Of a stretch of 64,000 bases of DNA, positions 11,216-51,317 are shown piece after piece. Every line of letters begins with the position of its first letter. Within the stretch, counting starts at the first letter, position 1. The notes beneath the pieces were generated by a model. That model made no database searches and was not told the origin of the DNA. It saw only the letters and a program-made list of their open reading frames with translations. Source of the DNA: a phage; NCBI GenBank assembly GCA_019326865.1, contig GCA_019326865.1_4101.1. One strand, 5' to 3'. A program made the translations under genes and the position numbers.

Positions 11216-12541
11216 ATGACTACTCAAAACGATATCCTGAATGTTAAACTGACTCCAAAGAAAGCTAAAGAAGCAATGGCACTAGCTGACATGATTCAAG
11301 ATAGCCTGATGATTTGGGGTAGCCCAGGTATCGGTAAGTCTGCAATTGCTCGTCAATACGCTGATGAAAATTACCCTCTGCGTAAAGATAACGAAGCTAA
11401 AATCGAGTTCATGAAACAACAAATTGAAGCTGACCCTGAAAATGCTGATCAGCTACGCCGTGAACTGGCTGCATTTGAAGCTAAACTAATCGACCAAGAT
11501 ACTAACTTCATCGATTTCCGTTTGTCTCAAATTGAACCAAGTGACCTCCGTGGTATCCCTGTACCAGAGAAGCTTTTCCGTAAAACTGACGGTTCTCTTC
11601 TCAAAGAATCTGAGCTTGCTGAAGCAAAAGATTATGTTGCTGAAACTGCTGTAGTTTGGGCTGCACCTAAAGTGCTGAAATTGCCAGAAGATTGGAAAGG
11701 GGTTATTCTGTTTGACGAAATTAACTCTGCAATGCCAATTGTTCAGGCAGCGTCTTATCAGCTAATCCTCGACCGTTGTGTTGGTGAGATGAAGCTACCT
11801 AAAACTGCACTGATTCTTGCAGCAGGTAACCGTGAAACTGATGGCGGTGTAACGTTCTCACTGGCTACACCACTACGTGACCGTATGACACACATTGAGA
11901 TGATTCCTTATCATCAAGATTGGATTAACGATTATGCAATTGGTAAACGTTTGAACCCAGCAACTGTTGCGTTCATCAACAACACAGGTTCTAAGTACTT
12001 TAACACTCTTAGCCCACAAGATCCTTCTCACAGTGGTGGTACTTCTCCACGTTCATGGGAAGCTGTAGCACGCTACGAAGATCTCAAGAAAACTAAGACA
12101 ATTGATAAAGAAGTGTTCCGTGCAATGATTGCTGGGCGTGTAGGTGAAGGTGTAGCAACTGAATACATTGAGTACGTTGATAACGTTGCTAAACTACCAG
12201 ATACTATGTCTATTCTGTCTGGTGAAATCAAAGATATCGATGCAACTCTTGATATTTCTGCGAATTATTTTATTACTTTGAACTTGGTTTATAAAATTAT
12301 CGACCTGTTCAATGAGAAGCAAGAACAACGTCTACCAGTGGAAGAATGGGGTAAACTGTGCAACAACTTCATTACCTTCCTTGACCATAACTTCTCTGCA
12401 ACTCAAGCAGAACTGGCAGTTCTGGCAATTCGCACCATTACGCTTCATAAGGTTGCGATTTCCATTAAAGATGTACCAGCGTTTAAAGATTTTATCGCTA
12501 AGTACTCTGAACTAGTTCGTAAAGCACGCTCTCTTGGGTAA
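11216..12541 (+). CDS. MoxR-family AAA+ ATPase (single AAA module)
   Basis: Walker A GSPGIGKS, Walker B VILFDEIN, sensor-1-like ILAAGNRETD; RBS aaaggaaat; own terminator. Confidence 0.8.
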   Translation: MTTQNDILNVKLTPKKAKEAMALADMIQDSLMIWGSPGIGKSAIARQYADENYPLRKDNEAKIEFMKQQIEADPENADQLRRELAAFEAKLIDQDTNFIDFRLSQIEPSDLRGIPVPEKLFRKTDGSLLKESELAEAKDYVAETAVVWAAPKVLKLPEDWKGVILFDEINSAMPIVQAASYQLILDRCVGEMKLPKTALILAAGNRETDGGVTFSLATPLRDRMTHIEMIPYHQDWINDYAIGKRLNPATVAFINNTGSKYFNTLSPQDPSHSGGTSPRSWEAVARYEDLKKTKTIDKEVFRAMIAGRVGEGVATEYIEYVDNVAKLPDTMSILSGEIKDIDATLDISANYFITLNLVYKIIDLFNEKQEQRLPVEEWGKLCNNFITFLDHNFSATQAELAVLAIRTITLHKVAISIKDVPAFKDFIAKYSELVRKARSLG

Positions 12542-22800: not shown

Positions 22801-25317
22801 AGGAAGAACACTGGCAATAGAAGATTCATTACTAACAATTGCACCAGTACTGGTTAGCGATTTTGCAGTTACATCAGCATTAGTAAGATCAACAGTTCCA
22901 TTAACGGTTAGATCTCCCCCGACTGTTGCACCAGCAGTAGTAGTAATTGAATTAGCATTAACATCTGCTTTAGTTAGATCGATTGAACCTGGAGTGATAG
23001 AGCCACTTACTGTTAGATCGCCAGTTACTTTTGTATTATTAGCAATTGTAATTCCATTTTCATTGGAAATATTAGGAGTCACCAATGAAGGTGTAGTAGT
23101 TTCGCCAGATACAGTTAATGTTGTACCAACTAATACACTTGAGCTTGTGTAAACACTTGATAGATTAGATGGTCCAGTTACGTGAAGTTCATCTGCATTA
23201 GCAGTTGTTACAGTTGCAGTTGTACTTTTAAGTACTGGTAGTACGTTTTCGGACACACTATCATTACTTTTAATAACACCAGAAGTAGTAAGTGATTTAA
23301 CATTAAGTTCGGCTTCTGATAAATCAAAAGAACCTTTAACTACTAGGTCACCACCAACTGTTGCACCAGCAGTAGTAGTAATTGAATTAGCATTAAGGTC
23401 GGCAGCACTTAAATCTAGTGAACCAACAGTTAAGCTACCAGTGATATCAACATTTTCTGTAAAGTTTGTATTACCACTAATAGTTGGGGCAGTTAAACTC
23501 GTTGCAGTGATATTAGTACCTTTGATTGTTTCACCACTTAATGTACCACTAGCAGTGATAGTTGGTGCGGTAACTTCGGTAGATGCACTAATTGTTGGTG
23601 CGGAAACCGAAGTTGTACCAGTAATAACACCAGAACTTACTGAACCAGCGGATAATGCACCAGAAAGAGTTGCAGTTGTTCCAGTAATATCACCAGTAAC
23701 AGTTAGTGCTCCACCAACAGTAGTATCACCTGTACTTTCCAAAGTTGCACCTTTGACATGTTCGGCTGCCACAACTGATTTTGGTGTTAAATCTTGTCCA
23801 CTAACGTCAACGGTTAAACCAGTTACTTTACCAGTGAAATCAACATCATTAAGAATTGCCTTACCACCAACTTGTAGGAATGGTGTACTTGGGTCTTGTG
23901 TTTCGTTACCTGTAATTGTTAGATAATCTAATTTGTTTAGACCATTACCAGTAATACCATATGTTGATAGTGATGCATTGCCAAATGTTGCAGTTTTAAG
24001 AACTTTCAATGTAGCTGGAGAAACCAACTCAGATTGAACTTCATTCGGTAAAATAACAGTTGGTCGTTGTTCTGGTGTAGTATATGCAAAACCGAGTTTA
24101 ACCGCTGGGTCTTGACTATTTTTACCTAAACTGATAGATTTGAAAGTTGCAGTACCGTTTAAACCAGTAATATTAGAACCTAGTGTAACACCACCCACCA
24201 ATGAAGTAGTTCCTGATACATTCAATGTGGTTGCATTAATATCATCCAACTGGAATTCGCCACCAAGAAGACCAGAAACATTAATGTTATTAAAATTAGC
24301 TGTGCCAGTACTTTCAATATTTGGGATAGTTGCAGTACCAGTAACTTCAAAATCAGCAACTTTAGTTTTACCTTTTTTTACTTCTAGAAGTGGTGTGTCT
24401 GGTGATTGAGTATCGTTACCAGAAACAGTTAGATAATCTAATTTGTTTAGACCATTACCAGTAATGCCATAGGTTGGCAATGATGCATTACCAAATGTTG
24501 CAGATGTCAAAACAGTCAATTTTGCTGGTGACATTAGTTCAGATTGAATTTCGTTTTGTAGAATTACAGTAGGACGCTTATCAGGAGCACTATAAGGGAA
24601 ACTTAGTCTAAAGGTTTGTGATTCAGAGTTAGATCCAATACGTATGTCTTTAAATGTAGCAGTGCTATTAATACCAGTTACATTAGCACCAAAAGTTACA
24701 GAACCTTTTTGGTTAGATGCACCAGTAACGTTCAATGTTTCAGCATTCAAATCAGAAAGATTAAACTCACCGCCCAGTGTACCATTAATGTTTACATCGT
24801 TGAATTCAGCAGTACCAGTACTAGTAATATCAGTTGCAGACACAGTTGTGATTTCTGCGGAATTAGCAGTAATTTTATCAAAAGCAGCAGTTGTGCCAAC
24901 ATCAGCAGTTAAGTTACCTTTAAGTGTTGTTACTCCATCAACTTCTAAGCTTTTTACTTTAGTTTCTTGTAGTGCTGTTGAACCCGCAGTTTGTGTCAAA
25001 TTACCACCAACTGACATAGTACCGTTGAATGTAGCATTTGCATTGATTGTTGCTGTATCAGAATCACCATCTGCACTACCGATAGTAGTGTTACCTTTAA
25101 CATCAAGACCACCACTTAATGTTGCTTTTCCAGCAACATCTAATGTGGATGTAATATTGGCAGTTTCGGTTTCAATGGCAGTAAAAGTTGCATTTGTGAA
25201 AGATATACTCCCATTTACAGTTAGGTTATTCTTGAATACAGCATTCCCTTTGACTAAAAGATCCTTACCAACCGTACCAGTACCAGTAATATCCAAGTCA
25301 GTTTTTATTGAGTACAT
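19816..25317 (-). CDS. giant fibrous tail fibre/adhesin protein (1833 aa, T/S/G/N-rich, internally duplicated)
   Basis: Low-complexity beta-rich composition; ~170-aa segment duplicated near N-terminus. Confidence 0.65.
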   Translation of the reverse strand: MYSIKTDLDITGTGTVGKDLLVKGNAVFKNNLTVNGSISFTNATFTAIETETANITSTLDVAGKATLSGGLDVKGNTTIGSADGDSDTATINANATFNGTMSVGGNLTQTAGSTALQETKVKSLEVDGVTTLKGNLTADVGTTAAFDKITANSAEITTVSATDITSTGTAEFNDVNINGTLGGEFNLSDLNAETLNVTGASNQKGSVTFGANVTGINSTATFKDIRIGSNSESQTFRLSFPYSAPDKRPTVILQNEIQSELMSPAKLTVLTSATFGNASLPTYGITGNGLNKLDYLTVSGNDTQSPDTPLLEVKKGKTKVADFEVTGTATIPNIESTGTANFNNINVSGLLGGEFQLDDINATTLNVSGTTSLVGGVTLGSNITGLNGTATFKSISLGKNSQDPAVKLGFAYTTPEQRPTVILPNEVQSELVSPATLKVLKTATFGNASLSTYGITGNGLNKLDYLTITGNETQDPSTPFLQVGGKAILNDVDFTGKVTGLTVDVSGQDLTPKSVVAAEHVKGATLESTGDTTVGGALTVTGDITGTTATLSGALSAGSVSSGVITGTTSVSAPTISASTEVTAPTITASGTLSGETIKGTNITATSLTAPTISGNTNFTENVDITGSLTVGSLDLSAADLNANSITTTAGATVGGDLVVKGSFDLSEAELNVKSLTTSGVIKSNDSVSENVLPVLKSTTATVTTANADELHVTGPSNLSSVYTSSSVLVGTTLTVSGETTTPSLVTPNISNENGITIANNTKVTGDLTVSGSITPGSIDLTKADVNANSITTTAGATVGGDLTVNGTVDLTNADVTAKSLTSTGAIVSNESSIASVLPKLESTDGTITTLGSTTANITNLKVTGTSTVADMTSSGKVKAVTIETPTISNDDGVSISNDTTITGNLTVSGTVSPGTIDLSQTEVNAKSITTTEGANIGGDLVVSGTVNLSGADVSVKSLTSSGIITVNSKDGINALPKVKSTEIATTTLNATNAVVAGDISAASANITGEMNGISLTLSGEETALTVTNNATIGGVLTVGSITSGTETVSITKNTAITGDLAVSGTLTAGVIDLSKTDVSVKSLNSLGDATVHGNLTVDGSIDLKSANIVGVTLESTGSTTVGTELVLTTGDITGNPSISGNMSVAGTTTLTGATTISSTLNTAEKLTVSAGGIKVVSGDVQVDKGSITAQSANISGISTLNSATVTTTLDVTGETSLNGGLTASTLDVTGDSTVQQLTVKGNFIPEGGLDLSGADLTVNSVSAAKTLSVTGASTLSGGVTTTTINASGKVTAKDLSTGTLEVTTNGTVGGTLGVTGKTTVGSLESGAISATSGTFSSTLDVTGAATFDNNVNITGTLTPGALDLTGADVIANSLSVTKTLHSDGNATIGGTLDVTGNASVPSMTINGEDVALKVTNNATVGGRLDVTGTTTVGAITSEGLVKTGSNVIIGTQVGEHTETVQIFPNTYIAGSLRVDGGINADIDVSGQTIEPYAVNAANTISAAGNITSGAELISKSATIGDVGSKNNNLTINGNVVNNGDFTVTGTLNATLNQSNSDVSVKSLTATNGVAAGTSITAGENITATKLLKGNTLEVTTTGSFGGAVTMSAGANVTGSLTVDGKLTASNITLEDATVTTITTSSAATLASASVIGEATIGGTLTVTGLMTANGSVVLGDADSDTLTVNATSSFKENAVFDKGVTVTGHLSTTNADFTTTKVTTKKYDVIPNQVTSSVIAPSGTWTPDGTSNVYFITLDQDTTLAPITGLIGGGKASSVYIYVKQDATGNRNFTTDGTYAVVDGTLNKTANSVTIYQVIYDGVSSVADMFIAQRTA
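23890..24910 (-). repeat. tandem duplication (~510 bp x2) within giant fibre gene
   Basis: e.g. agataatctaatttgtttagaccattaccagtaat at ~23921 and ~24431; approximate boundaries. Confidence 0.6.
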
Positions 25318-33817: not shown

Positions 33818-35319
33818 TCTGTATCCTTATGTATACGATATGCAGTATTTGGTTTAACTGCGTCATGTAATGGGACTTTATTATCACTATTTACGAACTT
33901 AGTAAGTGCCAAGTCTGCACCTTCCCATGGTTTTCTACCACCATAATCAAAAATAACCCATGAATTCTTTGTTGCATTGAATTCCCATAACGTAACTGGT
34001 GTATAATCGGTGCGATAAAAATAATCCCCATCAACAGCATCAGTAGGGAACATATTTCCTTCTGGAACAGTTCCTCTAGCGGGTGGAATTTTCGGTCGAT
34101 AATCCTGTTGGGCATCAATATTTCCATATACACTATTTGATGAGAATGGTTCATTAACATAGGTTACTTTTGGCTCGCCCCATTTATCATCATTGTACTG
34201 AAAAATGTGTGGTTCTTTATAAAAAATACAAAAATCTTCAATATTTTGCGGTGGGATATCACTTGTAGTATATTCTACATCACAATTTAACCATTTTTTA
34301 GCACTTTTGTCGTACTGATACAACGTATACCCAGTCACATCTGCATCATTTTCTTTAAAGAAAAAATCCCCATCCATTGGTTTTTTTGGAAAAACTGTTC
34401 CACGCTTGACTTCCAGTGAAATCCATGTATCATTGTCATACTCTTTGAGAACTGGGTACGTTTTTTTCAAAAAATACATACCATTAGCAGGTTCTTCTGG
34501 AAAATCATAACCGTTGAGCATATATTTAGATAAATCCACAGTATCGCGGCGGTCATCATACAAATGCTCGTTTGTATAATGGATATAAGGTACTTCATCA
34601 TCAGCTTGCATAATAATACGGTTCATAATATCCATTTCATTACTATAATTACTGTTTTCGGACGTACCATCGGTTGTGTTTCCATTACCATTATTTGGAT
34701 CATTTGGGTTATCTGGGTAATTATTGTTCCCCAGTAAGTCAGAGTACTCAGGTGAGTCAGTTAGTGGTTTTACTCTAAGTTTGTAAATGTGGTGTTGCCA
34801 CGTTACAGAGTAACCTTCGGCTGTACGAAATGCATCTTGTACCACATAGAAGCGATTTAGACCAGAATCTTTACCAAGTACATCATAATCACGCAAATTT
34901 GGCAATTCTATTACATCACCAGGCATGATTTTCCTGCCTAATCGTTGCATCATGGTATTGTAATGAATTGTGATGTCCATTGTGTTAAAATTAAAGAACA
35001 ACCCTGGGATTTTCAAGTCAGGGGTTGCTTCTTGGACTTGATAAACACAACTAAGTGTGATTGCTTCAAGGTTATAGCTTCGATTTGGTGTGTCTCCAAA
35101 AATTAAATCACCAATACTTGACACAACCGTACCGGAAGATGTATAATCACCGCCATATGATAAGTCATTGCTATCCGCAACTTGTTTTGGACCAACATAA
35201 GCGTAAAGCCACATGTCCACTCCACCTATGTTGTATTGTTCAGCAATTGCAGAGTCAATGAACTTGTAATCATTTGTTCTACCTTTTTTCCACATTCTAT
35301 ATGTCATATTTGTCTCCAA
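33814..35319 (-). CDS. hypothetical protein
   Basis: ORF overlapping downstream gene by 4 nt. Confidence 0.5.
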   Translation of the reverse strand: METNMTYRMWKKGRTNDYKFIDSAIAEQYNIGGVDMWLYAYVGPKQVADSNDLSYGGDYTSSGTVVSSIGDLIFGDTPNRSYNLEAITLSCVYQVQEATPDLKIPGLFFNFNTMDITIHYNTMMQRLGRKIMPGDVIELPNLRDYDVLGKDSGLNRFYVVQDAFRTAEGYSVTWQHHIYKLRVKPLTDSPEYSDLLGNNNYPDNPNDPNNGNGNTTDGTSENSNYSNEMDIMNRIIMQADDEVPYIHYTNEHLYDDRRDTVDLSKYMLNGYDFPEEPANGMYFLKKTYPVLKEYDNDTWISLEVKRGTVFPKKPMDGDFFFKENDADVTGYTLYQYDKSAKKWLNCDVEYTTSDIPPQNIEDFCIFYKEPHIFQYNDDKWGEPKVTYVNEPFSSNSVYGNIDAQQDYRPKIPPARGTVPEGNMFPTDAVDGDYFYRTDYTPVTLWEFNATKNSWVIFDYGGRKPWEGADLALTKFVNSDNKVPLHDAVKPNTAYRIHKDTE

Positions 35320-35351
35320 AATAATTCGGGTATATCTTTATTTACCATGTA

Positions 35352-35377
35352 GACAAACCATAAGAATGTGATATAAT
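35352..35377 (+). promoter_or_regulatory. promoter with extended -10 (aaTGTGATATAAT) upstream of ClpA-like gene
   Basis: TGATATAAT at 35369-35377, same core as P1/P2; -35 region weak (TAGACA, short spacer). Confidence 0.45.
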
Positions 35378-35417
35378 GGTTATTAATTAGAGTGACGTGA
35401 ATCACATAGGAGAATAC

Positions 35418-37706
35418 ATGAATCTTACTCAATTGTTCAAAAAAAGCGACGAACTGGCAACATCTCTCGGTCATACATTCTTGACTATTGACCATGTAAG
35501 TGCTACAGTACTAACCATTGATAGCATCAAGAATGTGTTTGAAGATATGAATATTGATGCAGACAAATTACATAATCGCTTAATGGACTATCTTAAAAAT
35601 ACATCGATTCCACATGCTCCAAAAAGTACCCAAGATGAAGATGCCAATCGTACTTCACTACTAGTGAATCGTGTCGTACATGAGCTTTCAAAAAAATCTG
35701 TCATTGAACAACTAAAAACGGATGATTTTTCAATTGATGCATATTTTGTGTTATTTGAATGCTTGTCTTTCCCAAACACTGCACTCGAAGCTGCGTTGAA
35801 AGAAGAAGGTGTTAGTTGTACTGAGGCTGCTCGTGCACTACAGAAACATGTTGAGACACTTAATAAGGGTATCAACCTACAAAGCATTAATGATGAACCT
35901 ACTGGAGATAAAAAAGTGGCTCAACCACAACAATCATCTAAACAAAAAGGTTTGGAAGACTACACAACAAATCTAACCGCTCTTGCAAAAGAAGGAAAAT
36001 TAGATCCGATGATTGGTCGCCAAAAAGAACTGTGTGCACTGATTGAGACACTAGCTCGTAAAACTAAAAAGAATGCAATTCTTACTGGTGAAGCTGGTGT
36101 AGGTAAAACACAAATCATTGACGGACTAGCACAAGCCATCGCTGATGGTAATGTACCTGAACATCTGAAAAATGTTGAAATTCTTTCACTAAATGTTGGT
36201 GCATTGACTGCTGGTACAAAGTACCGTGGTGAGTTTGAAGAACGCATCGATAATTTACTAAAAGAACTAAAGAAACGTGAAAATACTATTGTTTTCATTG
36301 ATGAAATTCATATTATGGTTGGTGCAGGTTCTGCAAGTAATGGCTCGATGGATATGAGCAATATGTTAAAACCAGCACTGTCACGTGGTGAGATTCGTGT
36401 GATTGGTGCAACAACATACGAAGAATATCGCAAAAATATCGAGAAAGATAGTGCACTAACACGTCGTTTTATGAAAATTGACGTAGTTGAGCCGACAATT
36501 GATGAAACTCGTACAATTGTTAATGGGTTAAAGTCAACTTATGAAAAATTCCATAATGTTGAGTTTACCGCCGATGCCATGGATGCTGTAATTTCTCTCA
36601 GCGATAAGTTCCTGAAGAATAAACACTTCCCTGATAAAGCAATTGACCTAATGGATGCTGCTGCGGCTAAAGTTCGTTCACGTGACAATAATAGTAAGCT
36701 TATTACTGCAAGTTTGGTTCAAGAAGTGGTTGCTGGTATTGCAAACTTAGATATCAATGTGGTTGCATGTACCGAAAGTGAACGTATGCGTAATCTTCCA
36801 GATGCACTTCGTTCACGTGTATATGGTCAAGATGAGGCTATTCAAAAATTAGTTGATAACGTAATGGTTGCTCGTGCGGGTTTGCGTGATAAATCAAGTG
36901 TTCAGGGTGCATTTATGTTTGTTGGTCCATCTGGAACTGGTAAAACTGAAATCACCAAAGCATTAGCTGACGCAACTGGTTCTGAACTTATTCGTTTTGA
37001 TATGTCAGAGTTTTCACAAGAACATACAGTATCTAAACTTATCGGTTCACCTCCAGGGTATGTTGGTCATGATTCTGGTAACGGATTACTGCTAGATAAG
37101 ATTGAACAGTTCCCTAATGCAGTTCTGTTACTTGATGAAATCGAAAAAGCAGATCGCAAAGTACTACTAACCTTTCTACAGGTTCTGGATGAAGGTCGTT
37201 TGACTGGTTCACAAGGAAAAACTGTATATTTTAATAACGTAACTGTTATTATGACTACAAACCTTGGTGCAGCAGATTCAACTAAACGTAGTATTGGTAT
37301 GAGTGGCAGTGAAACTGCACAAGATAAAGCAATCAAAGCATTTTTACCACCTGAATTCATTAACCGTATTGATAGTATCGTTACGTTTAATGAACTAAGC
37401 CGTGAAGCAATTGATAGTATCATTGACAAATTTATTGGAAGCTTAAATGACCAAGTAAAAAGCCGTAATGTAAAAGTTACTCTCACAAAAGCAGCACGTG
37501 AATGGTTGGCACAAAATGGTGTTCAAGCTGGCATGGGGGCACGACCTATGAAGCGTACAATTGAACAAAACATTCGTGTTCCACTAGCGAAAGAAATGTT
37601 GTGTGGAACGCTAGTGAATGGTGGTAACATCACATTTGATGTTATTAATGGTAAAATTGGCATCAAGCCAAAACGCACCAGAACAGTTGAAAAATCACTA
37701 GCCTAA
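35418..37706 (+). CDS. ClpA-like Hsp100 AAA+ unfoldase (two nucleotide-binding domains)
   Basis: D1 Walker [10 protein letters not shown], Walker B VFIDEIH; D2 Walker [31 protein letters not shown]; Clp-N-like N-terminus; ATG at 35418 has RBS aggag (listed ORF begins at GTG 35397). Confidence 0.85.
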
Positions 37707-37725
37707 AAAGAAAAAGGAGAGCACA

Positions 37726-37750
37726 ATGCTCTCCTTTTTTATTATTTAAC
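37726..37750. terminator. bidirectional intrinsic terminator (ggagagca-caa-tgctctcc)
   Basis: 8-bp perfect stem flanked by A-run and T-run between convergent genes. Confidence 0.75.
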
Positions 37751-40700
37751 TAACAATATATTCTTAATATCACTCCCACTTATTCGTAGGCTATTGGTAT
37801 ACATTGAAAGGTCTATTGTGTAACCATTATGAGTATAATGTTTAAATTTATCATAACTACCCAAATTAATACCATTAAAAGAATATGTAGTATTAAGTTT
37901 AAAGTCATGCTCAGCACTATACATTACTCCACGGAGCAAATTATTTGCATTTCTGACTTCAACTTTTTCATACCCAATCGATATAATGTCATTCCTGTTA
38001 GCAGAAGAACCTAATAACACATTATTTCTAATATTATAAGGACTTACTGATATAGGTTGAGCAACATACGTTGTATTTTCTTCACTGATAGTTGTTATGT
38101 TAGTGATAGTACCACCGACAACACCAATATATATATTGTCAACCATTGGATATTCATAACCCCATATACCTTCATTATTTTTGAATGGTTTGATATCATT
38201 CGCATCATATTCAATTACGTTAATTTCTAAACAATCAGGCATTTTAGTTCTTACCAATTCACTAAGAACACCATCCCCAGTAATTGGTAGGTTATACCCG
38301 TTATCTATAGTAATTCCATCGTCATTAAATATTTCGTTCGATACAATCCAAACATCAATATCATCAGGTGTTACACCGTCATTATACTTACCACCATTTA
38401 AAGTAGTATCATAAAAAACGTCATAATTAATCACATCAATAGTGTAATTTCGGTTTTGTTCATATAATTTAATACCATCTTTGACAAATTCTGAGTCAGT
38501 AAATGTTCTAACACGAACAATGTTCAAGGCAAGAGGCTGTACTGGCTCATTTTGTTGTGCAAGTGTGATATTATCATAACGAAGAACAGCACCAGAAGTA
38601 TCAACTAATTCAATCGTTTCCTTACCAGTAGTTCTTACTGTGAAAAGGATAGGAGTTGTATTATGTTTGATATTAGATACACGCAATATGGTTTCCCATT
38701 TATGGTTTTGATATCTTATAAAGTCTTCACCATCAGGAGTGAAAATCATCACCTTATCACCATCAGATAAGTCATTGTCAACAATTTCCGCTTCAGTCAA
38801 GCTATTAATAGATCTCACACGATAAAAATATTTTTCATCAAACGGTGCTGATTTTTTATTAATATCATTTTCAACCTTAGCATATGAAGGAATACTAACA
38901 ATTGCTTCTGTGTGTTTATATGGATTTATAATTGCCATACCTTCAGTTTGATATCTACTATTATTACGTAATTGCACTAGTGACACGTTGTCAAACCCAT
39001 ACCCATCAACAGTAAATCTAATATGCCCAACATCACGACCAGATGGATTTATATCAGATATGTCAATAATATAAGGATCAACTTCGTCGTCTTTAACTTC
39101 CCATTTTATGGTAGAAGTTTGTGATTCTAATGCAAGGTTATCAAATGCATTCATATCATTAAAGTACTTAGCTTCAGAAATACTATCAAGTATAAATTGA
39201 TAGTCTGAATACATTGGGTTATTTGTATCTTGTGGTAAATCGTCAAGATTTATTTCCGCAAGTTCAACCATTTCACCATTTGTAATAAAATAATCTTCCA
39301 TGAAATCATCAATACTTCTGTTATCTGGTATACTTTGGTTTACACCGTTAACATTTAAATATACATATTTCCTTGGCATCATAGTAATAGCATAGATATC
39401 AATTGGTGTTTTTGAAAGAATTTCTTCCGCTTTTTCGTACTTGTCGGTAGCATCTTTGTCAAACAACCCTCTCATACCTGCTAATACATGAACTGCATCT
39501 GAATAGAAACGAGTATCTCCACCAACCTCATCATAACGATAAACGTATACACCATATTCAACTTCTAGTTTTACTTTAATATCATAGTCTGATGCATCAG
39601 GATGTTTATCTTTAATTAAAGAAATATATTTTTCATATAATTCTTTACTTATTTCAAAATACCCATAGTTATAATCATTACTAGAAGAAAAGCCTAATGG
39701 AAGTCTTGTGCTCGGATTATCATTATAAGTCAATCCACTGAACCCACAACCAACTTCATCATGAATTTTATCATCACTGATATCTTTATAAAGTTTCAAG
39801 CGGTTGGCTAATGTGTTATACTGTACATATTGTCTAAGGTCAGTAAACATTTCATTATGCGTTGATTCTTTATAAACTCGTTCCAAAGTAGCAGTAAATT
39901 TATCAGTGGCTTCTAAATCATCTGCATGATCTTTATACCATTGGTTCACACCATGTGCAGTTCCAAGTGTTACATCCAATTCTGGATAATAGATTTGCAT
40001 TAGATACGCATTAACAAGGTCAAACGATTTTTCATTATATTCTGGGAAAGAATATATATAACGTTGTAATTCATAGTTATTAACAGAATCTTTTTCATTT
40101 GTTTGATATTTTTTATTAACACTAACTAAATCATTAATGTTTGCCAAATCTTCGTTTGGTTTACATTGAATGTTATCATAATGCATAATAATATCAATTT
40201 CTTGGAATCTTCTATTTGGGGTAATAAAATCACTAGGTAATGCACCAACTTGTTCCCATTTTTTAGTAACTTCATTATATTGTGCGTACTCGTAATCCCA
40301 AATATCTTTTTCAGTTTTAATCCAAGAACCATCAACGAAAATATACCCATTAGGATCTAAATCGTTACAAAGACCTTTTATTAAATCATCATCAGATGTT
40401 TTTTGTTCTATTTGTGAACGAATTTTAGTTCTATAAGGTTTAACCTCTTCAAAGTACTCAACAATTTGATTAATCAAATTATCATTTGAGTAATTTTGAA
40501 CTAAAGATTGTTCCAACCCAACAATATAGATATAGGAAGTTTTAAATACCCAATCTACAACACTTTGTTCGACGTGAACATATTTTACCATATCAAACAC
40601 AATTTCGCTTTGATGTAAATCGAAAGAATGTTTAAGTAATGCTAGTGCTTTACGAACATTTATTTCACGATTACTAAGGGAACCATCATCATTGTAAACA

Positions 40701-43700
40701 CTATAGTCTGTATAAAGTATATCATTAAGTTCAATAGTACTATTTTGACGACCAATAGCTTTCCAATAAATTGAATCACGTGATTGAGATTTGATATACA
40801 ACGTCCAAATATTTTCACTATCTGTAACTCTGATGATATCACCGACTTGATAGTTTTTAGTATTTGCTTCTTCTAAACTTGTCTCTTGAATATAAGCTGT
40901 TTTACTATCATACCCAACGTCATACCAATCAGCATATGACCAGTAATGAGTCATATCTAATGATGTTCCAAGTGATTCAACATAATCACTTTGCTTAATC
41001 ATTTTATGTTGTCCCTCACCTTTATTTTCTAAAGTTATAGTAACAATATTTCCTGTATTGGCCGGGCTGTTCATTAACTGAATATATCCATTTTCATCAA
41101 AGTGAATGAAATAAACTGCACTGGTGGATAAAGGATTTGGTAGATAACCGCTGGAACTTAAAATAACAGCGTCATTTTCTTTAAATTTATCCTTTTCGAC
41201 TGCAATCACCAATTCATTATTATAAGACAATACACGGAAAGAAACCTCATTTGGGTTAACTTCTGTTGTTTTGACATTAAACACATCTTCCATAACAACA
41301 CTATTAGTGGTTATGTTTTGTGATCTATAATAATTATTAGCACTTTCTACAAAGTTTCTACGTGCTTCAATTACATTCTGGAACCAGGTTTTATTGGAGC
41401 CGATTCCATTATCAACATCTGGATATAATAAATTTATCACTGAACCTGACTTGGTAGTTTCTTGTCCTATTAGTGAGTTCCACATTGAATCCCAAATTAA
41501 TGGATTGAAGTTATAACTTTCTCCCTCTTTACACAGTTGGTACTGATCATGTTTAACAACTTCAGTGCTGTCCATATAGTAAGAAATAGTCAAAATACTG
41601 GTGTCATCATTGACTTTAAACTGCATATTACTAAGGATAAAAGAGTTTTCATTAATTGGTGCAAACCAAGGAATGTTTAACTGTGATGGATCTTTAATAA
41701 TACGTGCAATATCAGTACATGATTTAGTTCTGGTATGTAGTGGTGGTACATAAATTGTATCACGTACCCAGAAATAGTATTTTGTCACATAACTGTCAGT
41801 TGAGCTATCATATTCCAAAAATGTACTATAATTATCTTCAAGTGCAGTTCCGCTTGGAAGATACATATTATTATTTTTGTTTTTCTTAGCAACATCTTTA
41901 CAGTACTTATCCCAGTTATATGGTTCTACTGGTGAACATACCCACTCTAATACATCAATTGTGCTATGTGGCAACAAACGCCCCCAGTTGTATCGTTTGT
42001 ATTCATTAGTTGCGTCAATATCAACATTACCATCTGCGTCATAAATGGCACGAGTATAATCCAAATAAAATGCAGTGCTTGTGTTCCACCATACTTGACC
42101 TACTTTATCTGCACCCCAAGCTTGAACTAATTCGCCATTACTATTATATTGTGCAGGGTCAATTGGTGAAGTATATGTCACGTTTTGCATAGCTGCACCT
42201 GGAATAACACCATTAATTGGGTCAAAAACGTTTAGATATAATGCAGTAATATTTGTGCGTTCATCATACGTTGTTGGTCGTTCAAATAAAGTGCTCTGTG
42301 GTGCTTTAAAGCTATATTTTTTGTCAATATATTCTTGACGTTTATCAGCACTAGAAAAACGTGAAACATAACGATACAAACGTGGACGAGTAGCCGGATC
42401 AGTAAATTCAATATTAATTGAAGTATCAAATGGAACTACCATAACTTTAGAATCTTCACCAGCAGTATAATATTGACTTTCTACTGTTAATGTATCTGGC
42501 ATAAAGTTTGTTTCATCAACAAAATAATAATAATCACCATCTTCAAGTGGGATTTTATCAGTCAATGTTACTTTACAGAATTGTTCAGCGTAAATATCGG
42601 TATTTTCTATTGGTGTTATAGAAACCATTTGTACATTAGTGTCAACTAATTCAAAAATGTTCCACAAACCATTACCATCTTTAAACATCCAAACTGATTC
42701 TGGATTTTCACCTTTACCGTTAACATAAGAAATTCTGTCGTTATATGCAGTACTGAAATCTTTAGTAGTGTAAGATACTTCATCTAATGTCACTGGACCA
42801 ATGTCAGGAAGTTGGATATGTTCACTTCTCCCACTACGCATTGGAAATGAAAATTTTCCATTCGGGCGTGTAATCCAACGTGGGTCTTTACCTTGATCAC
42901 CAAAATATACAACATTATTACCATTGCCATTTGAAGTTGCGTTTTCATCAAATGACACCATTTGTGGTTGTTGTTTAAATTGGTCATTAATTAATTTAAA
43001 TTGGAGATTTTTCTTACCATCAATATTACCATATGTACCAATTTTAAATGCCCATTCTTGTAATGCTTTATACTCATCTGTGTCATATGATTTAGAAACA
43101 CGTAAAACACGTTCTAAAACTTGGTTAGTGCCTTTGTCATGAATAAATCCTTTATAAAAATCAACACGACTAACATCGCTACTAATCATACGTTGTAGAT
43201 AATCACGTGATTGGTAACCAATTAAATGACTAGATAATTCTTGTAATTGTACATCGCTTACAGGGTTTTCATTATCATAGTAATGTTGAAAATCAGTTAC
43301 TAATGTTTCAAATGAAGGAATTGTACCAGATTCTAATATAATAAAACCAGGTGCTTGTAATCTACCCGTCCATGAACCAGTAATATAACCGTACATTTTG
43401 ATTAGTTCCTGAATAGAACCATATGTTGGTTGATAGATGTAATCACCAAAAATAGTTTTATCATCAAATATAACCGCATGTTCATATGAACACAAACTTA
43501 AACGAAGTAATGCAATACGTTTATTAGAATCTAATGTTCTAACAGTGAAAATATTACCAATACGAGAAGTTTCGATTTCATATTGACGAATTCCTTGGTT
43601 ATTATCATCAAGTAATGACCATACTCCACCATTATTTTGTGCAATAGACTGAACTGAGCCAAAATCTGAACCAAATTTTGCATTTGTTGCACTTGGTGTA

Positions 43701-46700
43701 CAAGATATAAATTCCCCAGTTACAAGAGAATTCTGGCTCCACATCACAAAATCTTTAGCAATAGTGTTCCAATCTTGCTGAACGCCGCCATCATTTACAT
43801 CTTCGAAGATCCAGCCATGTTCTTTAAGATACTCACCATAACCACAAATAAAAGTATAGACTTCTTGGTAACTGTTAAAAACCGTTCCATATTCAATAGA
43901 AGCCTCAGACTTCCATTCATTGTAATGGACAACATTACGGTTTTCTAATTTAATAGTTACTTTTCGACCATTTTTCACTGGGAGTTTATATTTAAATTTA
44001 GCACCAACCAAATCATATCCATCGATTTGATATGCACTGCCATTCCATGTAATTTTGATTGCACTCATCTGTTCATCACGAATATTATTCGAACGTACAA
44101 GTCCAATTGTTTGGTTTTCTTGAGAAATCAACCCAAATGATTTAGCATTGAATGTTAGTTGGTCTGCTTTAGTAAAGCCTCCAATTTTATGTCCTACATT
44201 TACATAAGAAGAACGAACAATATCACCATATTTTGTAGTAATGTTTTTATTTTGATACATCAAATAATCACTAACGAACATTTGATACCCAATTGTTCTT
44301 GTGTTATTTTCACCATGAACAGTGGTTTTTTTATCAAAATTAACACGATTACGGGTATCCCCATAAAGAAATTGTTCACCACCAGTGAATATTTCTTTTA
44401 AATTATCATTTCGGGTGTCCCAAAAATAGTTTGCGAATTGTGCTGGTTTAGCTTTATACAATAGCATCATTTGGTCATATGCAAATAATGTGGTATTCAT
44501 GTAAGTGAATTCCATGTCACCCATATCACCATATGCCCAAGGTTCTGCTCTGTGATTTAAAGAACCAGATACTAAACCTAAAATCTCAGGGGCAATATAC
44601 TCAACAACACAAATATCCACACCAGATGATGTTTTATTTCCAGTTTTTGTAATTTTAAATGGTTGTACACCAAATCTTCTATATTTGTTATACTGACCAC
44701 GACGTTCACCAGATAAAATTGTACCAGTGCTACTATCCCCAATAGTATCATTAATATTCCAAAGACCGCTAGGAACTAAATCACCTTGTTCATCTGTGAC
44801 AAGTGCTTCATATACATATACAACATCACTATCACGTTCACCAACTTGAACAGCAGTTGGTTCATATTCTTGGTTCCACCAAGTAGGACGTTGTGTAAAT
44901 CCAAACATTTCCCATGGATGTGTTGCTGGACGATATGTACCATATTGGTCAGTATAGATTGCACGCCACGAACCACGAGCAGGAATTTCAGTACTTTTAC
45001 CATCAACCATATAATAGGTTCCAGTGTAGTTCCATGTTCTCCAGTTACTTGGGTCATAATCATGTGTACTATTACTAATACCATTGGATGCTGTAAAATT
45101 AATATAACCACGTAATAAAAGTGTTTGTTTTTCTTCTGCACTATATTCAGTTTTTGTAAAATATGGAGTAGGGAAAAGGTCATCACTATTCAATACTGGA
45201 ACATAATCAACATCTTTGAATTTATTATCAATACTATTAAAAATTCTATTTTCCAACTCATAAACAACATCATCCATTTTATCAACACCATTAATTACGC
45301 GATATGCTTTTGAAATGATACCAGTATGGCTAATGTTATAAAAGCTTGGTTTACTACCAGCAGTTAGAAATGTAGCTTTCTCAGGAACATATGCTTGTAG
45401 AATACCCAAAAACTGTGGTGTTGGTGGTATAAATGCACGAATAAGTCCAGATGTGCTTCCTACATTATCATAATAGAACGGGAATGAGCTATCACGTCCC
45501 ATATTGATAGTAGTTAAAATAGAATCAACAATACTTGCTGCACTATTTTGTAAAAAGTTTGATGGATTTTCATTATACATACGAAGCATTTGAGTATTAA
45601 ATTTATTAATGAATCTGAAATATTCAGATTGCATAAACATAGTTGCTTCAAATAAATCAATATCTTCATTTGCAGTATGAGCCATCAATGGGAGCATAGA
45701 AGCTTCATTTTGAATAATTTTAGTTCCTACTCCATTATTCACTAATCCCTTAGCTAAACGTTCTTCATAATCGTTGAAGTCATCAGCATAACCACTAGTG
45801 ATATTCTGTTGAATAATATCCTGAAAATGAAGAGTATAGTCTCCTTGATTAATATATATAATATTGGAGTTATATGGGTTATTTTGTAAGTTAATTGGAA
45901 CTTCATATGCACCTAATTCTTTATCAGGTGTTACAGTTCTACTATAAGTTCTAATTTGGATAACAGAATCATCATCTAAATCTATCGAACTATCAAGTGT
46001 GATGCTTTGTACTTGACCTTTTGATACATTCTTTGTATATTTTGATACATTAACACCATCGACATTAACTTCAATAATATCAGAATCATTATCTAAAACT
46101 TTTTGAGCTAATTCAAACGTATGATTATATTTTAAAATCTGAATACCATCACCACTAATCTGATGCCAGTCCAAATAAGTTTCACGTTCTGCTTTATAGT
46201 ACTGATATGTTCTATCAACTTCAATAACATATGCATACATACCATCAACAGGTTCTTTGAACACTTCCATGTCATAAACAGTACTGAACACTCGATACAT
46301 GTCAGTACGTTGGACCTGTGGAGTTTGTTTTACATATTGTTTAGAGTATTCTTTTGAACGAACCCAATCAGTTTTTAGATTCATTTTATTAGTTTCATCA
46401 ATAATGTTATAATAATACAATCCACCAATTTCAACTTCAACACCAAGATGGTCATATGTATAACGTTGTGATTGCAAAAAGTTTTCATATGTGTAATAGT
46501 TGTAATCACCAAGTTCAATGTTATACCCATATACGCTATCAGTAGCGTAATTGTAATTTATTTTAAAACCAAATAATTGTGAACCTTTAAAGTTACTGGA
46601 TGGGTATGTTGTACTATTATCTAGTTTAATCCCATTGCGATCATAAAGTTGGAACTGTGGGAAGACGTTAACACTAGGTTTAGACTGTGCACGAACCCAC

Positions 46701-47737
46701 AAAGTACCATTCCAAAACATAGAACTATTACCATATTCATTACCTTTGGTAATTAAAACAACATCTCCATCCTGTGGTTCACCACTTGGACGAGATTCTG
46801 ATTCTTCATCGGGGTCTAGTGCTAAGCCATAAACACGTGTACCATCTTGCATTTTTTTAACATATATTTTATAAATTCTATTGTTTTCGCCATCGTTACC
46901 AATACTAGTGAATAGAATACGCATACCATCTTGTGGAATAATACCATCAATGCGAATACCACTATTGACATCTTTTTGGATAATATCTTCAGGTTTAATA
47001 TTATCAGAAAAAAGTTCAACTGTGCCACGGAATTTTGTACCATAGTTAATTAGCTCAATATTTTTATTATATTCAATAATTGGTGCACGAGCACGAATAA
47101 AACGAGCATCTTGCATTAATTCTTCGGTCAAGATAGAACCATCTTCCAGTGTTTCACCTAAAGTATACCAAAAGTTTTGTAATGACCAAGTATTACCATT
47201 ACGTGCACCACGTTCCATGACAATGTAGTCAGGGGTAGTAATATTATAAGAGTTTTTTGTATCCCAAAGATATGAGCTAAAATTATTCATTTTATTTGGG
47301 TTGATAGCAGGTGTCCATGCATAAAACTTACCGTTAAATAAGCGGCTTTCATTATCGGTTAGTGCTCCGTAATGACTCATGTACCCAACCAGATCATCAT
47401 AAAATTGAATTGAACGAATAGTCGAATCATCATTTTTAGAGACGTAAGCAGTGGACAACTGATAAAGTTGTCGAGCAACAGTACTTTCGTGTAAAAAGAT
47501 ATTACCAGCAGCGGCTGGAGAACCCATATCACCAATATAACCGTCAACTAATTCGTTTTCAGCCGGATTAAACCATTGTTGAATAACATCATCACTGACT
47601 TTCTGAATATCTTCTAAGCCTTGCATCCACTCAGGCAATCTTTTAATAAAAAGCTTTTTCTGTACTGCTTCAGCCATCTGTGTAGGTTGAAACTTAAAAT
47701 TATTAGTCATTTTCTGGACTCCATATAATTCGTTCAT
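37742..47737 (-). CDS. giant virion structural protein (3331 aa; baseplate wedge/fibre-network candidate)
   Basis: Uninterrupted 10-kb ORF in AT-rich DNA; immediately downstream of gp6-like baseplate gene. Confidence 0.6.
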   Translation of the reverse strand: MNELYGVQKMTNNFKFQPTQMAEAVQKKLFIKRLPEWMQGLEDIQKVSDDVIQQWFNPAENELVDGYIGDMGSPAAAGNIFLHESTVARQLYQLSTAYVSKNDDSTIRSIQFYDDLVGYMSHYGALTDNESRLFNGKFYAWTPAINPNKMNNFSSYLWDTKNSYNITTPDYIVMERGARNGNTWSLQNFWYTLGETLEDGSILTEELMQDARFIRARAPIIEYNKNIELINYGTKFRGTVELFSDNIKPEDIIQKDVNSGIRIDGIIPQDGMRILFTSIGNDGENNRIYKIYVKKMQDGTRVYGLALDPDEESESRPSGEPQDGDVVLITKGNEYGNSSMFWNGTLWVRAQSKPSVNVFPQFQLYDRNGIKLDNSTTYPSSNFKGSQLFGFKINYNYATDSVYGYNIELGDYNYYTYENFLQSQRYTYDHLGVEVEIGGLYYYNIIDETNKMNLKTDWVRSKEYSKQYVKQTPQVQRTDMYRVFSTVYDMEVFKEPVDGMYAYVIEVDRTYQYYKAERETYLDWHQISGDGIQILKYNHTFELAQKVLDNDSDIIEVNVDGVNVSKYTKNVSKGQVQSITLDSSIDLDDDSVIQIRTYSRTVTPDKELGAYEVPINLQNNPYNSNIIYINQGDYTLHFQDIIQQNITSGYADDFNDYEERLAKGLVNNGVGTKIIQNEASMLPLMAHTANEDIDLFEATMFMQSEYFRFINKFNTQMLRMYNENPSNFLQNSAASIVDSILTTINMGRDSSFPFYYDNVGSTSGLIRAFIPPTPQFLGILQAYVPEKATFLTAGSKPSFYNISHTGIISKAYRVINGVDKMDDVVYELENRIFNSIDNKFKDVDYVPVLNSDDLFPTPYFTKTEYSAEEKQTLLLRGYINFTASNGISNSTHDYDPSNWRTWNYTGTYYMVDGKSTEIPARGSWRAIYTDQYGTYRPATHPWEMFGFTQRPTWWNQEYEPTAVQVGERDSDVVYVYEALVTDEQGDLVPSGLWNINDTIGDSSTGTILSGERRGQYNKYRRFGVQPFKITKTGNKTSSGVDICVVEYIAPEILGLVSGSLNHRAEPWAYGDMGDMEFTYMNTTLFAYDQMMLLYKAKPAQFANYFWDTRNDNLKEIFTGGEQFLYGDTRNRVNFDKKTTVHGENNTRTIGYQMFVSDYLMYQNKNITTKYGDIVRSSYVNVGHKIGGFTKADQLTFNAKSFGLISQENQTIGLVRSNNIRDEQMSAIKITWNGSAYQIDGYDLVGAKFKYKLPVKNGRKVTIKLENRNVVHYNEWKSEASIEYGTVFNSYQEVYTFICGYGEYLKEHGWIFEDVNDGGVQQDWNTIAKDFVMWSQNSLVTGEFISCTPSATNAKFGSDFGSVQSIAQNNGGVWSLLDDNNQGIRQYEIETSRIGNIFTVRTLDSNKRIALLRLSLCSYEHAVIFDDKTIFGDYIYQPTYGSIQELIKMYGYITGSWTGRLQAPGFIILESGTIPSFETLVTDFQHYYDNENPVSDVQLQELSSHLIGYQSRDYLQRMISSDVSRVDFYKGFIHDKGTNQVLERVLRVSKSYDTDEYKALQEWAFKIGTYGNIDGKKNLQFKLINDQFKQQPQMVSFDENATSNGNGNNVVYFGDQGKDPRWITRPNGKFSFPMRSGRSEHIQLPDIGPVTLDEVSYTTKDFSTAYNDRISYVNGKGENPESVWMFKDGNGLWNIFELVDTNVQMVSITPIENTDIYAEQFCKVTLTDKIPLEDGDYYYFVDETNFMPDTLTVESQYYTAGEDSKVMVVPFDTSINIEFTDPATRPRLYRYVSRFSSADKRQEYIDKKYSFKAPQSTLFERPTTYDERTNITALYLNVFDPINGVIPGAAMQNVTYTSPIDPAQYNSNGELVQAWGADKVGQVWWNTSTAFYLDYTRAIYDADGNVDIDATNEYKRYNWGRLLPHSTIDVLEWVCSPVEPYNWDKYCKDVAKKNKNNNMYLPSGTALEDNYSTFLEYDSSTDSYVTKYYFWVRDTIYVPPLHTRTKSCTDIARIIKDPSQLNIPWFAPINENSFILSNMQFKVNDDTSILTISYYMDSTEVVKHDQYQLCKEGESYNFNPLIWDSMWNSLIGQETTKSGSVINLLYPDVDNGIGSNKTWFQNVIEARRNFVESANNYYRSQNITTNSVVMEDVFNVKTTEVNPNEVSFRVLSYNNELVIAVEKDKFKENDAVILSSSGYLPNPLSTSAVYFIHFDENGYIQLMNSPANTGNIVTITLENKGEGQHKMIKQSDYVESLGTSLDMTHYWSYADWYDVGYDSKTAYIQETSLEEANTKNYQVGDIIRVTDSENIWTLYIKSQSRDSIYWKAIGRQNSTIELNDILYTDYSVYNDDGSLSNREINVRKALALLKHSFDLHQSEIVFDMVKYVHVEQSVVDWVFKTSYIYIVGLEQSLVQNYSNDNLINQIVEYFEEVKPYRTKIRSQIEQKTSDDDLIKGLCNDLDPNGYIFVDGSWIKTEKDIWDYEYAQYNEVTKKWEQVGALPSDFITPNRRFQEIDIIMHYDNIQCKPNEDLANINDLVSVNKKYQTNEKDSVNNYELQRYIYSFPEYNEKSFDLVNAYLMQIYYPELDVTLGTAHGVNQWYKDHADDLEATDKFTATLERVYKESTHNEMFTDLRQYVQYNTLANRLKLYKDISDDKIHDEVGCGFSGLTYNDNPSTRLPLGFSSSNDYNYGYFEISKELYEKYISLIKDKHPDASDYDIKVKLEVEYGVYVYRYDEVGGDTRFYSDAVHVLAGMRGLFDKDATDKYEKAEEILSKTPIDIYAITMMPRKYVYLNVNGVNQSIPDNRSIDDFMEDYFITNGEMVELAEINLDDLPQDTNNPMYSDYQFILDSISEAKYFNDMNAFDNLALESQTSTIKWEVKDDEVDPYIIDISDINPSGRDVGHIRFTVDGYGFDNVSLVQLRNNSRYQTEGMAIINPYKHTEAIVSIPSYAKVENDINKKSAPFDEKYFYRVRSINSLTEAEIVDNDLSDGDKVMIFTPDGEDFIRYQNHKWETILRVSNIKHNTTPILFTVRTTGKETIELVDTSGAVLRYDNITLAQQNEPVQPLALNIVRVRTFTDSEFVKDGIKLYEQNRNYTIDVINYDVFYDTTLNGGKYNDGVTPDDIDVWIVSNEIFNDDGITIDNGYNLPITGDGVLSELVRTKMPDCLEINVIEYDANDIKPFKNNEGIWGYEYPMVDNIYIGVVGGTITNITTISEENTTYVAQPISVSPYNIRNNVLLGSSANRNDIISIGYEKVEVRNANNLLRGVMYSAEHDFKLNTTYSFNGINLGSYDKFKHYTHNGYTIDLSMYTNSLRISGSDIKNILLVK

Positions 47738-51254: not shown

Positions 51255-51317
51255 AATTTATTCCTTTAAATCAGTAAAGTACTAGTTCAGTACTGGGAAT
51301 TATATAGAAATATTTAT

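Follow-up and report, generated by a model that had tools for sequence, protein, structure and literature searches.

What does a phage do with a ClpA-like unfoldase of its own, and which peptidase, if any, does such a protein serve? The question is raised by 64,000 nucleotides of phage DNA (NCBI GenBank assembly GCA_019326865.1, contig GCA_019326865.1_4101.1), the whole of which we call the window, where a gene for a class-I Hsp100/Clp AAA+ unfoldase of the ClpA type, clpA in what follows, occupies positions 35418..37706 of the plus strand. An earlier sequence-only reading of the window had seen no ClpP beside this gene and had proposed an orphan unfoldase that redirects host ClpP. The first half of that statement is true, as tblastn finds neither ClpP nor ClpS within the 64 kb; for the second half the close relatives of the phage provide another answer. 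We consider it probable, at roughly 0.6, that the window ClpA serves as unfoldase in a ClpA/ClpP/ClpS-like protease that the phage itself encodes; expression is probably early, and the system may be insulated from the Clp network of the host.

On the basis of nucleotide identity, 96.6% to Escherichia phage UE-S1 and about 89% to 121Q, PBECO4 and other Asteriusvirus jumbo phages, the window is part of an Asteriusvirus (121Q/RaK2-like) jumbo phage, and it corresponds to positions 263,162-327,572 of 121Q. Its ClpA shares 99.1% amino acid (aa) identity with UES1_530 of UE-S1 (7 substitutions) and 95% with gp581 of 121Q, annotated as 'ClpA-like protein'. Orthologues are found throughout the RaK2-like supergroup, at ~75% identity in RaK2 and 54-62% in GAP32, CBB, BF, fHe-Yen9-04 and Erwinia and Xanthomonas phages, and remoter copies have been picked up by PA5oct-like phages (41.6%) and by Atu_ph07 and Phosso (38-40%) alike in searches. 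The family is not new: it has been annotated (121Q gp581, phrog_4871), its high conservation in RaK2-like phages has been noted previously (PMC6102473) and a translocase or assembly role has been suggested by Iyer et al. 2021 (PMC7824862); the literature mentions the family, and we found no functional or experimental study of it there.

By sequence and predicted structure the product is an intact ClpA-type unfoldase. The parts of the gene and its signals are as follows (pLDDT, predicted local distance difference test).

35350..35377, plus strand: sigma-70-like promoter with extended -10, 11/12 in the promoter scan, made up of TAGACA (35350-35355), a 16-nt spacer, TG (35369-35370) and TATAAT (35372-35377)
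35397..37706, plus strand: open reading frame, 769-aa translation from an upstream GTG
35408..35412, plus strand: ribosome-binding site AGGAG, 5 nt 5' of ATG 35418, by sequence inspection
35418..37706, plus strand: ClpA-like class-I Hsp100/Clp AAA+ unfoldase gene, 762 aa plus stop
35418..35867, plus strand: N-terminal Clp_N-type domain (aa 1-150), the most diverged part (Pfam, model, alignment)
35868..35957, plus strand: flexible linker from the N-domain to D1 (about aa 151-180; low pLDDT, low column conservation)
35958..36740, plus strand: D1 AAA+ module with lid (about aa 181-441; Pfam, alignment)
36087-36110, plus strand: D1 Walker A, GEAGVGKT
36219-36230, plus strand: D1 pore loop, KYRG (aa 268-271)
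36288-36311, plus strand: D1 Walker B, IVFIDEIH
36459-36470, plus strand: D1 arginine fingers, TRRF
36741..37682, plus strand: D2 AAA+ module and D2-small (about aa 442-755; Pfam, alignment)
36924-36947, plus strand: D2 Walker A, GPSGTGKT
37056-37067, plus strand: D2 pore loop, GYVG (aa 547-550)
37125-37151, plus strand: D2 Walker B
37251-37262, plus strand: D2 sensor-1, MTTN
37293..37301, plus strand: IGM tripeptide (aa 626-628), at the position of the ClpP-docking IGL of ClpA
37353-37367, plus strand: D2 arginine finger, EFINR
37536-37550, plus strand: D2 sensor-2, GARPM
37710..37740, both strands: bidirectional intrinsic-terminator hairpin, 14-bp stem with T-runs on either side

Pfam recognizes Clp_N, AAA (D1), AAA_lid_9, AAA_2 (D2) and ClpB_D2-small domains in the protein; Clp_N is recognized weakly, as a single repeat at aa 18-66 of the 769-aa translation, with 22.0 bits where the cut-off is 20.7. 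Among solved structures E. coli ClpA (1ksf, E 2e-178) gives the best match, and residues 24-748 of the 769-aa translation align without a break onto its residues 20-734; ClpB, ClpC and Hsp104 each align in two stretches, and the window ClpA is therefore read as having no M-domain. Identity to E. coli ClpA is about 20% in the N-domain, 50% in D1 and 45% in D2. Aligned by MAFFT with E. coli ClpA and homologues from phages, the protein retains its Walker A and Walker B motifs, both pore loops (KYR and GYVG), sensor-1, sensor-2 and the arginine fingers, and the Walker A, Walker B, sensor and arginine-finger residues of the two AAA+ modules do not vary among 49 homologues. The AlphaFold2 model, for which 49 homologues were used, reaches a pLDDT of 79.3 and shows an N-domain of eight helices (residues 3-148), a disordered linker (157-176, pLDDT < 50) and two AAA+ modules. 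When compared with the PDB by Foldseek this model matched ClpC, ClpA and ClpB, with ClpA 46-47% identical over D1-D2 and full-length ClpA crystal structures aligning over 754-765 columns. The top NCBIfam model is ClpA TIGR02639 at 758.3 bits, ahead of ClpB (635 bits), and phrog_4871, a phage 'ATP-dependent protease' family, scores 1028 bits, residues 2-755 lying on profile positions 11-760 of 764. The two complete AAA+ modules, the Clp-N-like N-terminus and the missing middle domain of the sequence-only reading are thus all borne out by Pfam, alignment and model.

The true start of the gene is almost certainly ATG 35418, because AGGAG lies 5 nt upstream of it and because the upstream GTG is taken out of frame in UE-S1 by a 1-nt insertion that is evident on alignment with the window. 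Promoter, AGGAG and ATG are invariant in UE-S1 and 121Q by the same means. The UE-S1 record starts UES1_530 further downstream, giving a protein of 736 aa with a truncated N-domain; the conserved ribosome-binding site and ATG give 762 aa. A length of about 760 aa had been claimed, which is right if one counts from ATG 35418 (762 aa) and wrong from the start that had been chosen. The promoter and the bidirectional terminator that had been described are both present by scan, the former kept in two relatives. The terminator hairpin at 37710-37740 (dG -19.4 kcal/mol, z -7.1, with 0/200 shuffles folding as well) is common to clpA and to the convergent gene of a 3331-aa virion protein, which ends at 37742, and the UE-S1 record has a terminator annotated at the corresponding place.

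The feature that connects this protein with ClpP is the IGM tripeptide, which falls exactly on I617-G618-L619 of E. coli ClpA in both a structure-relative alignment and the MAFFT alignment; in the ClpAP cryo-EM (electron cryomicroscopy) work these three residues insert into the ClpP cleft (bioRxiv 10.1101/820209). In the AlphaFold2 model IGM forms the tip of a low-confidence loop (624-630) that follows the sensor-1 strand and precedes the helix before the D2 arginine finger, so that its placement between sensor-1 and the arginine-finger region, where ClpA carries its IGL loop, is confirmed as originally described. Only two tripeptides of the form [ILVM]G[FLMVIY] occur in the entire protein. 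The third residue, Met, departs from the canonical [LIV]-G-[FL], while position and loop context match ClpA. Because a ClpA-type unfoldase carries IGM at the homologous docking position, a ClpP partnership of the window ClpA is plausible on sequence grounds.

Among 123 homologues the tripeptide position is mostly hydrophobic-Gly-hydrophobic, with residues far more varied than [LIV]-G-[FL]: IGM (17) and MGM (16) are followed by IGV (11), IGF, LGM and IGA (9 each), LGL and MSM (8 each), VGF (6) and IGG and MNM (5 each). The 121Q ClpA has IGM, and related phages of enterobacterial hosts differ from one another, with IGM, LGL, IGV, LGM or MNM. In E. coli the ClpX substitutions I268L and F270L and the ClpP substitution R192K severely impair ClpX-ClpP docking (PMC7112951), and the docking interface is therefore sequence-sensitive. 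That the tripeptide differs among phages whose enterobacterial hosts are closely related speaks for a partner from the phage that varies along with it, and against a single invariant cleft on the host side. The ClpAs of Salmonella phages of the 7t3/SE_PL/Munch-like type have lost the glycine (MNM, MSM, MSI, LNI) with the ClpP triad still intact, and a separate metagenomic ClpA lineage has IGA or IGG.

A ClpP is encoded by the relatives of the phage. With 64 kb of the present phage at hand, the partner genes are known from the close relatives UE-S1 and 121Q, and the whole 348-kb genome of 121Q was examined for them. Here gp464 is a canonical ClpP (Pfam CLP_protease, 141 bits; 35.6% identity to E. 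coli ClpP over 191 aa), with UES1_416 as its UE-S1 counterpart, and the phage ClpPs retain Ser97, His122 and Asp171 as well as the axial gating residues P4, V6, E8, E14 and R15, which in our reading is more in keeping with a ClpP gated by an ATPase than with a prohead protease. A ClpS domain occupies residues 74-144 of the 181-aa gp48 of 121Q, whose counterpart in UE-S1 is UES1_034. In both genomes the partner genes lie about 84-85 kb from clpA, outside the stretch equivalent to the window, and the orphan idea is for this reason largely an artefact of a 64-kb view. The search of the genome for ClpP and ClpS, carried out in these relatives, finds both, and the phage ClpP elsewhere undermines an orphan acting on host ClpP; what stands is that the phage supplies its own ClpA-type unfoldase with a docking-type loop, and what falls is the necessity of redirecting host ClpP, since with a phage-encoded ClpP the binding of the host enzyme is no longer needed to explain clpA.

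The three genes travel together. Database searches gave ClpA matches in Escherichia (33), Klebsiella (11), Salmonella (10) and Erwinia (8) phages, and the counts for ClpP (Escherichia 34, Klebsiella 10, Salmonella 8, Erwinia 8, Yersinia 4) and for the ClpS-like protein (34, 10, 8, 8 and 4, in the same order) agree closely with these. All three are present in 121Q, UE-S1, GAP32 and RaK2, as they are in PA5oct-like phages, Atu_ph07 and Phosso, and 7t3 has ClpA and ClpP. On the evidence gathered, a ClpP and a ClpS-fold gene thus appear to be encoded generally across the RaK2/GAP32 supergroup. An apparent lack of ClpS in Asteriusvirus was discarded: an E. coli ClpS query gave no match at E <= 0.01, and a GAP32 ClpS-domain query recovered the orthologue supergroup-wide. 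The ClpS-like gene (121Q 33944-35623; UE-S1 22178-23856) is located between a gene resembling translation initiation factor IF3 and a KTSC-domain ('DnaJ-like') gene, and its product, which the UE-S1 record calls no more than hypothetical, has conserved extensions of ~70 aa N-terminal and ~35 aa C-terminal to the ClpS core.

Several other assignments were considered and rejected. The RefSeq/PHROG label of gp464 is 'head maturation protease'. A separate T4 gp21-like capsid maturation protease, gp601, adjoins the scaffold and major capsid genes of 121Q; gp464 itself aligns full length with bacterial ClpP, axial gating loop included, and is unnamed among the virion proteins of phAPEC6, so that prohead protease was rejected as its main reading. 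In CBB virions ClpP gave a single peptide. Neither the 'ClpP-like' gp473 (16.7 bits on Pfam CLP_protease, below the cut-off) nor the 'HslV-like' gp475 (no Pfam hit) was used as evidence. Together with gp464 they make up a 'protease island' at 214364-219952 of 121Q, in which gp473, of weak ClpP fold, has a hydrophobic, signal-like N-terminus and gp475, of the HslV family and phrog_1040, begins with MTC; no HslU is annotated in the 121Q genome.

The promoters provide a second connection between clpA and clpP. The 348-kb genome of 121Q contains 31 sites that score at least 11/12 and have an extended -10 TG, and 27 of these lie between 20 and 178 kb, in a region of small, presumably early genes. 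Just four are found beyond 200 kb: clpP and clpA have one each, and the other two precede the gene of an AAA-like ATPase. The clpP site, TGGACA-16-TG-TATAAT, is 35 nt upstream of the start codon, and that of clpA is TAGACA-16-TG-TATAAT, or TAGACA-16-TGATATAAT as written for the window; clpP and clpA of 121Q have GTGATATAAT and the 16-nt spacer in common. From its sigma-70-type extended -10 promoter clpA is probably transcribed by host RNA polymerase, and early. No transcript timing for clpA was found, the omics papers on UE-S1 and PA5oct being without Clp and the PhageExpressionAtlas holding host clpP and clpX only. The AAA-like ATPase gene is represented in the window at 11216-12541 (plus strand, 441 aa), where it is preceded by two tandem 12/12 TTGACA-16-TG-TATAAT sites (10925 and 11018); like clpA and clpP, this gene has one of the very few strong sigma-70-type promoters of the late genome half. 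The phAPEC6 homologue of the ATPase, gp265c (49.5 kDa), is found in virions by mass spectrometry. The ATPase was rejected as a ClpX/HslU partner on account of weak generic AAA Pfam hits, its membership in phrog_1297 and the lack of a PDB relative.

The interfaces through which E. coli Clp proteins recognize one another and their substrates are diverged in these phages. At positions N34, D35, D36, M40, M62 and H66, which we take to be the N-degron pocket of ClpS, the ClpS-like proteins of the RaK2 group are not conserved, while the ClpS of PA5oct retains most of them. All RaK2-group ClpPs have a conserved C-terminal extension of ~20 aa. In the ClpP cleft, whose residue list is confirmed in bioRxiv 10.1101/820209, the phage enzymes differ from E. 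coli at Y60 (T or V), F82 (S, Y, C or N), F112 (mostly L) and L114 (G); no claim is made for a replacement of R192, since R or K is found one residue later and the alignment is ambiguous. With docking tripeptide, ClpP cleft residues and adaptor pocket all differing from E. coli, the phage Clp system may be partly insulated from the host Clp network. As to where it works, the ClpA of the Asteriusvirus phAPEC6 (gp246c) is absent from 62 virion proteins detected by mass spectrometry, among which are the products of the flanking genes (gp245 and gp248), and the unfoldase most likely acts in the infected cell and not in the virion.

A working sequence of events can be proposed. ATP-driven hexamers would draw their substrates through a pore lined by the KYR and GYVG loops, as the intact motifs and the ClpA fold suggest. 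With IGM at its tip, the D2 loop would dock in the clefts between the subunits of a ClpP heptamer, most probably that of the phage itself, giving an ATP-dependent protease; loop homology, co-occurrence of the genes and the shared promoter type all point in this direction. Substrates would be chosen via the strongly diverged N-domain and a ClpS-fold protein in which the residues of the canonical N-degron pocket are not conserved. Host RNA polymerase would transcribe clpA, probably early, even though the gene is situated inside the late structural module, and the site of action would be the infected cell, with the virion proteomics of phAPEC6 in support.

It is instructive to compare this system with known ones. 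The window ClpA and E. coli ClpA, the unfoldase of the ClpAP/ClpAPS protease (PDB 1ksf, 1r6b, 6uqe, 7uiv), share the order Clp_N-D1-D2-D2-small, the absence of an M-domain, a similar length (762 and 758 aa, respectively) and a hydrophobic-Gly-hydrophobic tripeptide at the IGL position; they differ in overall identity (about 40%), in IGM versus IGL, in a loop that is two residues shorter in the window protein and in gene arrangement, clpS and clpA forming an operon in E. coli whereas the phage clpS-like gene is not adjacent. ClpB/Hsp104 and ClpC are likewise class-I double-ring Hsp100 proteins with a Clp_N domain, but have an M-domain insertion in D1 that the window ClpA does not. ClpB is without a ClpP-docking loop, while the window ClpA has one of the docking type. 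Closest are the orthologues UE-S1 UES1_530, 121Q gp581, phAPEC6 gp246c, RaK2 ORF069 and GAP32_229, with identities from 99.1% to about 61% and a common flanking order. UES1_530 shows essentially no difference, the promoter is common to the window and its two closest orthologues (UE-S1 and 121Q), and remoter orthologues have LGL, IGV, LGM, MGM, VGF, IGA, IGG, MSM or MNM. The jumbo phages PA5oct, of Pseudomonas, and Atu_ph07, of Agrobacterium, also have ClpA with ClpP and ClpS (PMC6102473). Their ClpAs are, however, 38-41% identical to that of the window and carry the canonical IGF; the PA5oct ClpS keeps N34, D35, T38, M40, M62 and H66, unlike the RaK2-group protein, and in both phages dnaJ lies directly upstream of clpA, a linkage that is absent in the window and the RaK2-like group.

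The surroundings of clpA are structural. To its left and divergent are genes for a virion protein without a Pfam match and for a T4 gp15-like tail-sheath stabiliser; to its right and convergent is the gene of the 3331-aa virion protein, with baseplate genes beyond. Divergent transcription from a baseplate module, as it had been described, is therefore correct as regards the existence of divergent neighbours and incorrect as regards their nature, the baseplate lying past the convergent 3331-aa gene. In GAP32, RaK2 and phAPEC6, too, clpA stands between the gp15-like operon and the gene of the giant structural protein, which rules out a lone recent insertion and makes clpA an old, fixed resident of the structural module. 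The 3331-aa open reading frame (37742-47737, minus strand) is the orthologue of 121Q gp582 and of phAPEC6 gp245, a 382-kDa protein present in virions, and the arrangement in which the giant gene converges on clpA is itself conserved in GAP32 and RaK2. Relative to about 51269-51297 of the window, between baseplate genes, 121Q has an insertion of ~765 bp (314111-314877), gp584, an HNH endonuclease 'associated with group I intron' that is absent from the window; by sequence the difference appears to be one of presence or absence of a mobile element.

Other readings of the gene have to be weighed against a phage-encoded protease. The one closest to the original proposal holds that the IGM loop docks on the ClpP of the E. 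coli host and turns host proteolysis towards substrates of the phage's choosing, the phage ClpP having some other purpose. Host ClpP is abundant in E. coli, IGM is one conservative change from IGL at the same loop position, and docking on the host enzyme is compatible with binding phage ClpP as well. We nevertheless regard this as quite unlikely, since the genus has a canonical ClpP of its own, with triad and gating loops intact and a promoter of the clpA type, and since variation of the tripeptide among phages of closely related enterobacterial hosts is unexpected for one conserved cleft, the more so given how sequence-sensitive E. coli ClpP docking is (PMC7112951). A decoy, in which phage ClpA titrates host ClpP or ClpS away from host ClpX/ClpA and thereby shields phage proteins or blocks a Clp-dependent defence, would make use of the docking-type loop and the Clp_N domain that are present. 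Inhibition of host proteases by phages has precedent, for example in T4 PinA, which acts on Lon. The catalytic residues of the ATPase and those of the pore loops show strict conservation in about 120 homologues, for which a passive decoy would have no use, and the phage has a ClpP and an adaptor of its own, so that this reading is highly improbable.

Unlikely as well, in our estimate, is a ClpP-independent chaperone or unfoldase with a vestigial loop, which would remodel large virion proteins such as the 3331-aa one or translocate during assembly. It draws on the position between tail-completion operon and giant structural gene that is conserved across the supergroup, on the assembly or translocase role already suggested by Iyer et al. 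(PMC7824862) and on a tripeptide that is degenerate in several lineages (IGG, IGA, MSM, MNM) next to invariant ATPase motifs. What tells against it is that in every case checked ClpA is accompanied by ClpP and a ClpS-fold gene, and that the promoter is of the sigma-70 type, common to clpP and not obviously late. The M-domain is the element by which ClpB-type disaggregases cooperate with DnaK, and the window ClpA has none. Absence from phAPEC6 virions is neutral for a chaperone and speaks against a structural role.

Some of these observations also weigh against the phage-encoded protease that we prefer. The 758.3 bits on TIGR02639 fall below its equivalog cut-off of 993, and the score of 650 bits on NF008263 does not reach the cut-off of 1350. 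The tripeptide is unusually variable, with sub-lineages that have IGA, IGG, MSM or MNM and with the glycine gone in some, so that docking may have been relaxed or lost in some lineages; a variable tripeptide combined with invariant ATPase motifs fits a core function that does not need ClpP. When five lineages were compared, the tripeptide of ClpA and the cleft residues of ClpP showed no clear covariation. The location inside the structural module would also fit a morphogenetic role, early expression is deduced from the promoter consensus only, and the evidence for clpP and a clpS-like gene comes from close relatives rather than from the remainder of the present phage's genome.

A more far-reaching version of the preferred reading is that the Clp protease of RaK2-like phages, made up of ClpA, ClpP and a ClpS-fold adaptor that has lost the canonical N-degron pocket, is self-contained and orthogonal to that of the host. 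It would be made early from host-type promoters and degrade host or phage proteins of the phage's choosing, and its remodelled docking interface, with the variable tripeptide, the changes at ClpP Y60, F82, F112 and L114 and the ~20-aa ClpP extension, would insulate it from host ClpX, ClpA and ClpS. This we put forward tentatively, as a possibility that we would not yet bet on. As it stands, clpA is an annotated, conserved member of a known phage family, and the claim of an orphan unfoldase does not hold up. Were the interface orthogonal to E. coli ClpP, the system could be used as an insulated degradation module in synthetic biology. If the phage-encoded protease is real, this would be a virus that brings a complete machine for regulated proteolysis rather than borrowing that of its host, and the substrates of that machine would reveal what a jumbo phage must destroy or remodel early in infection.

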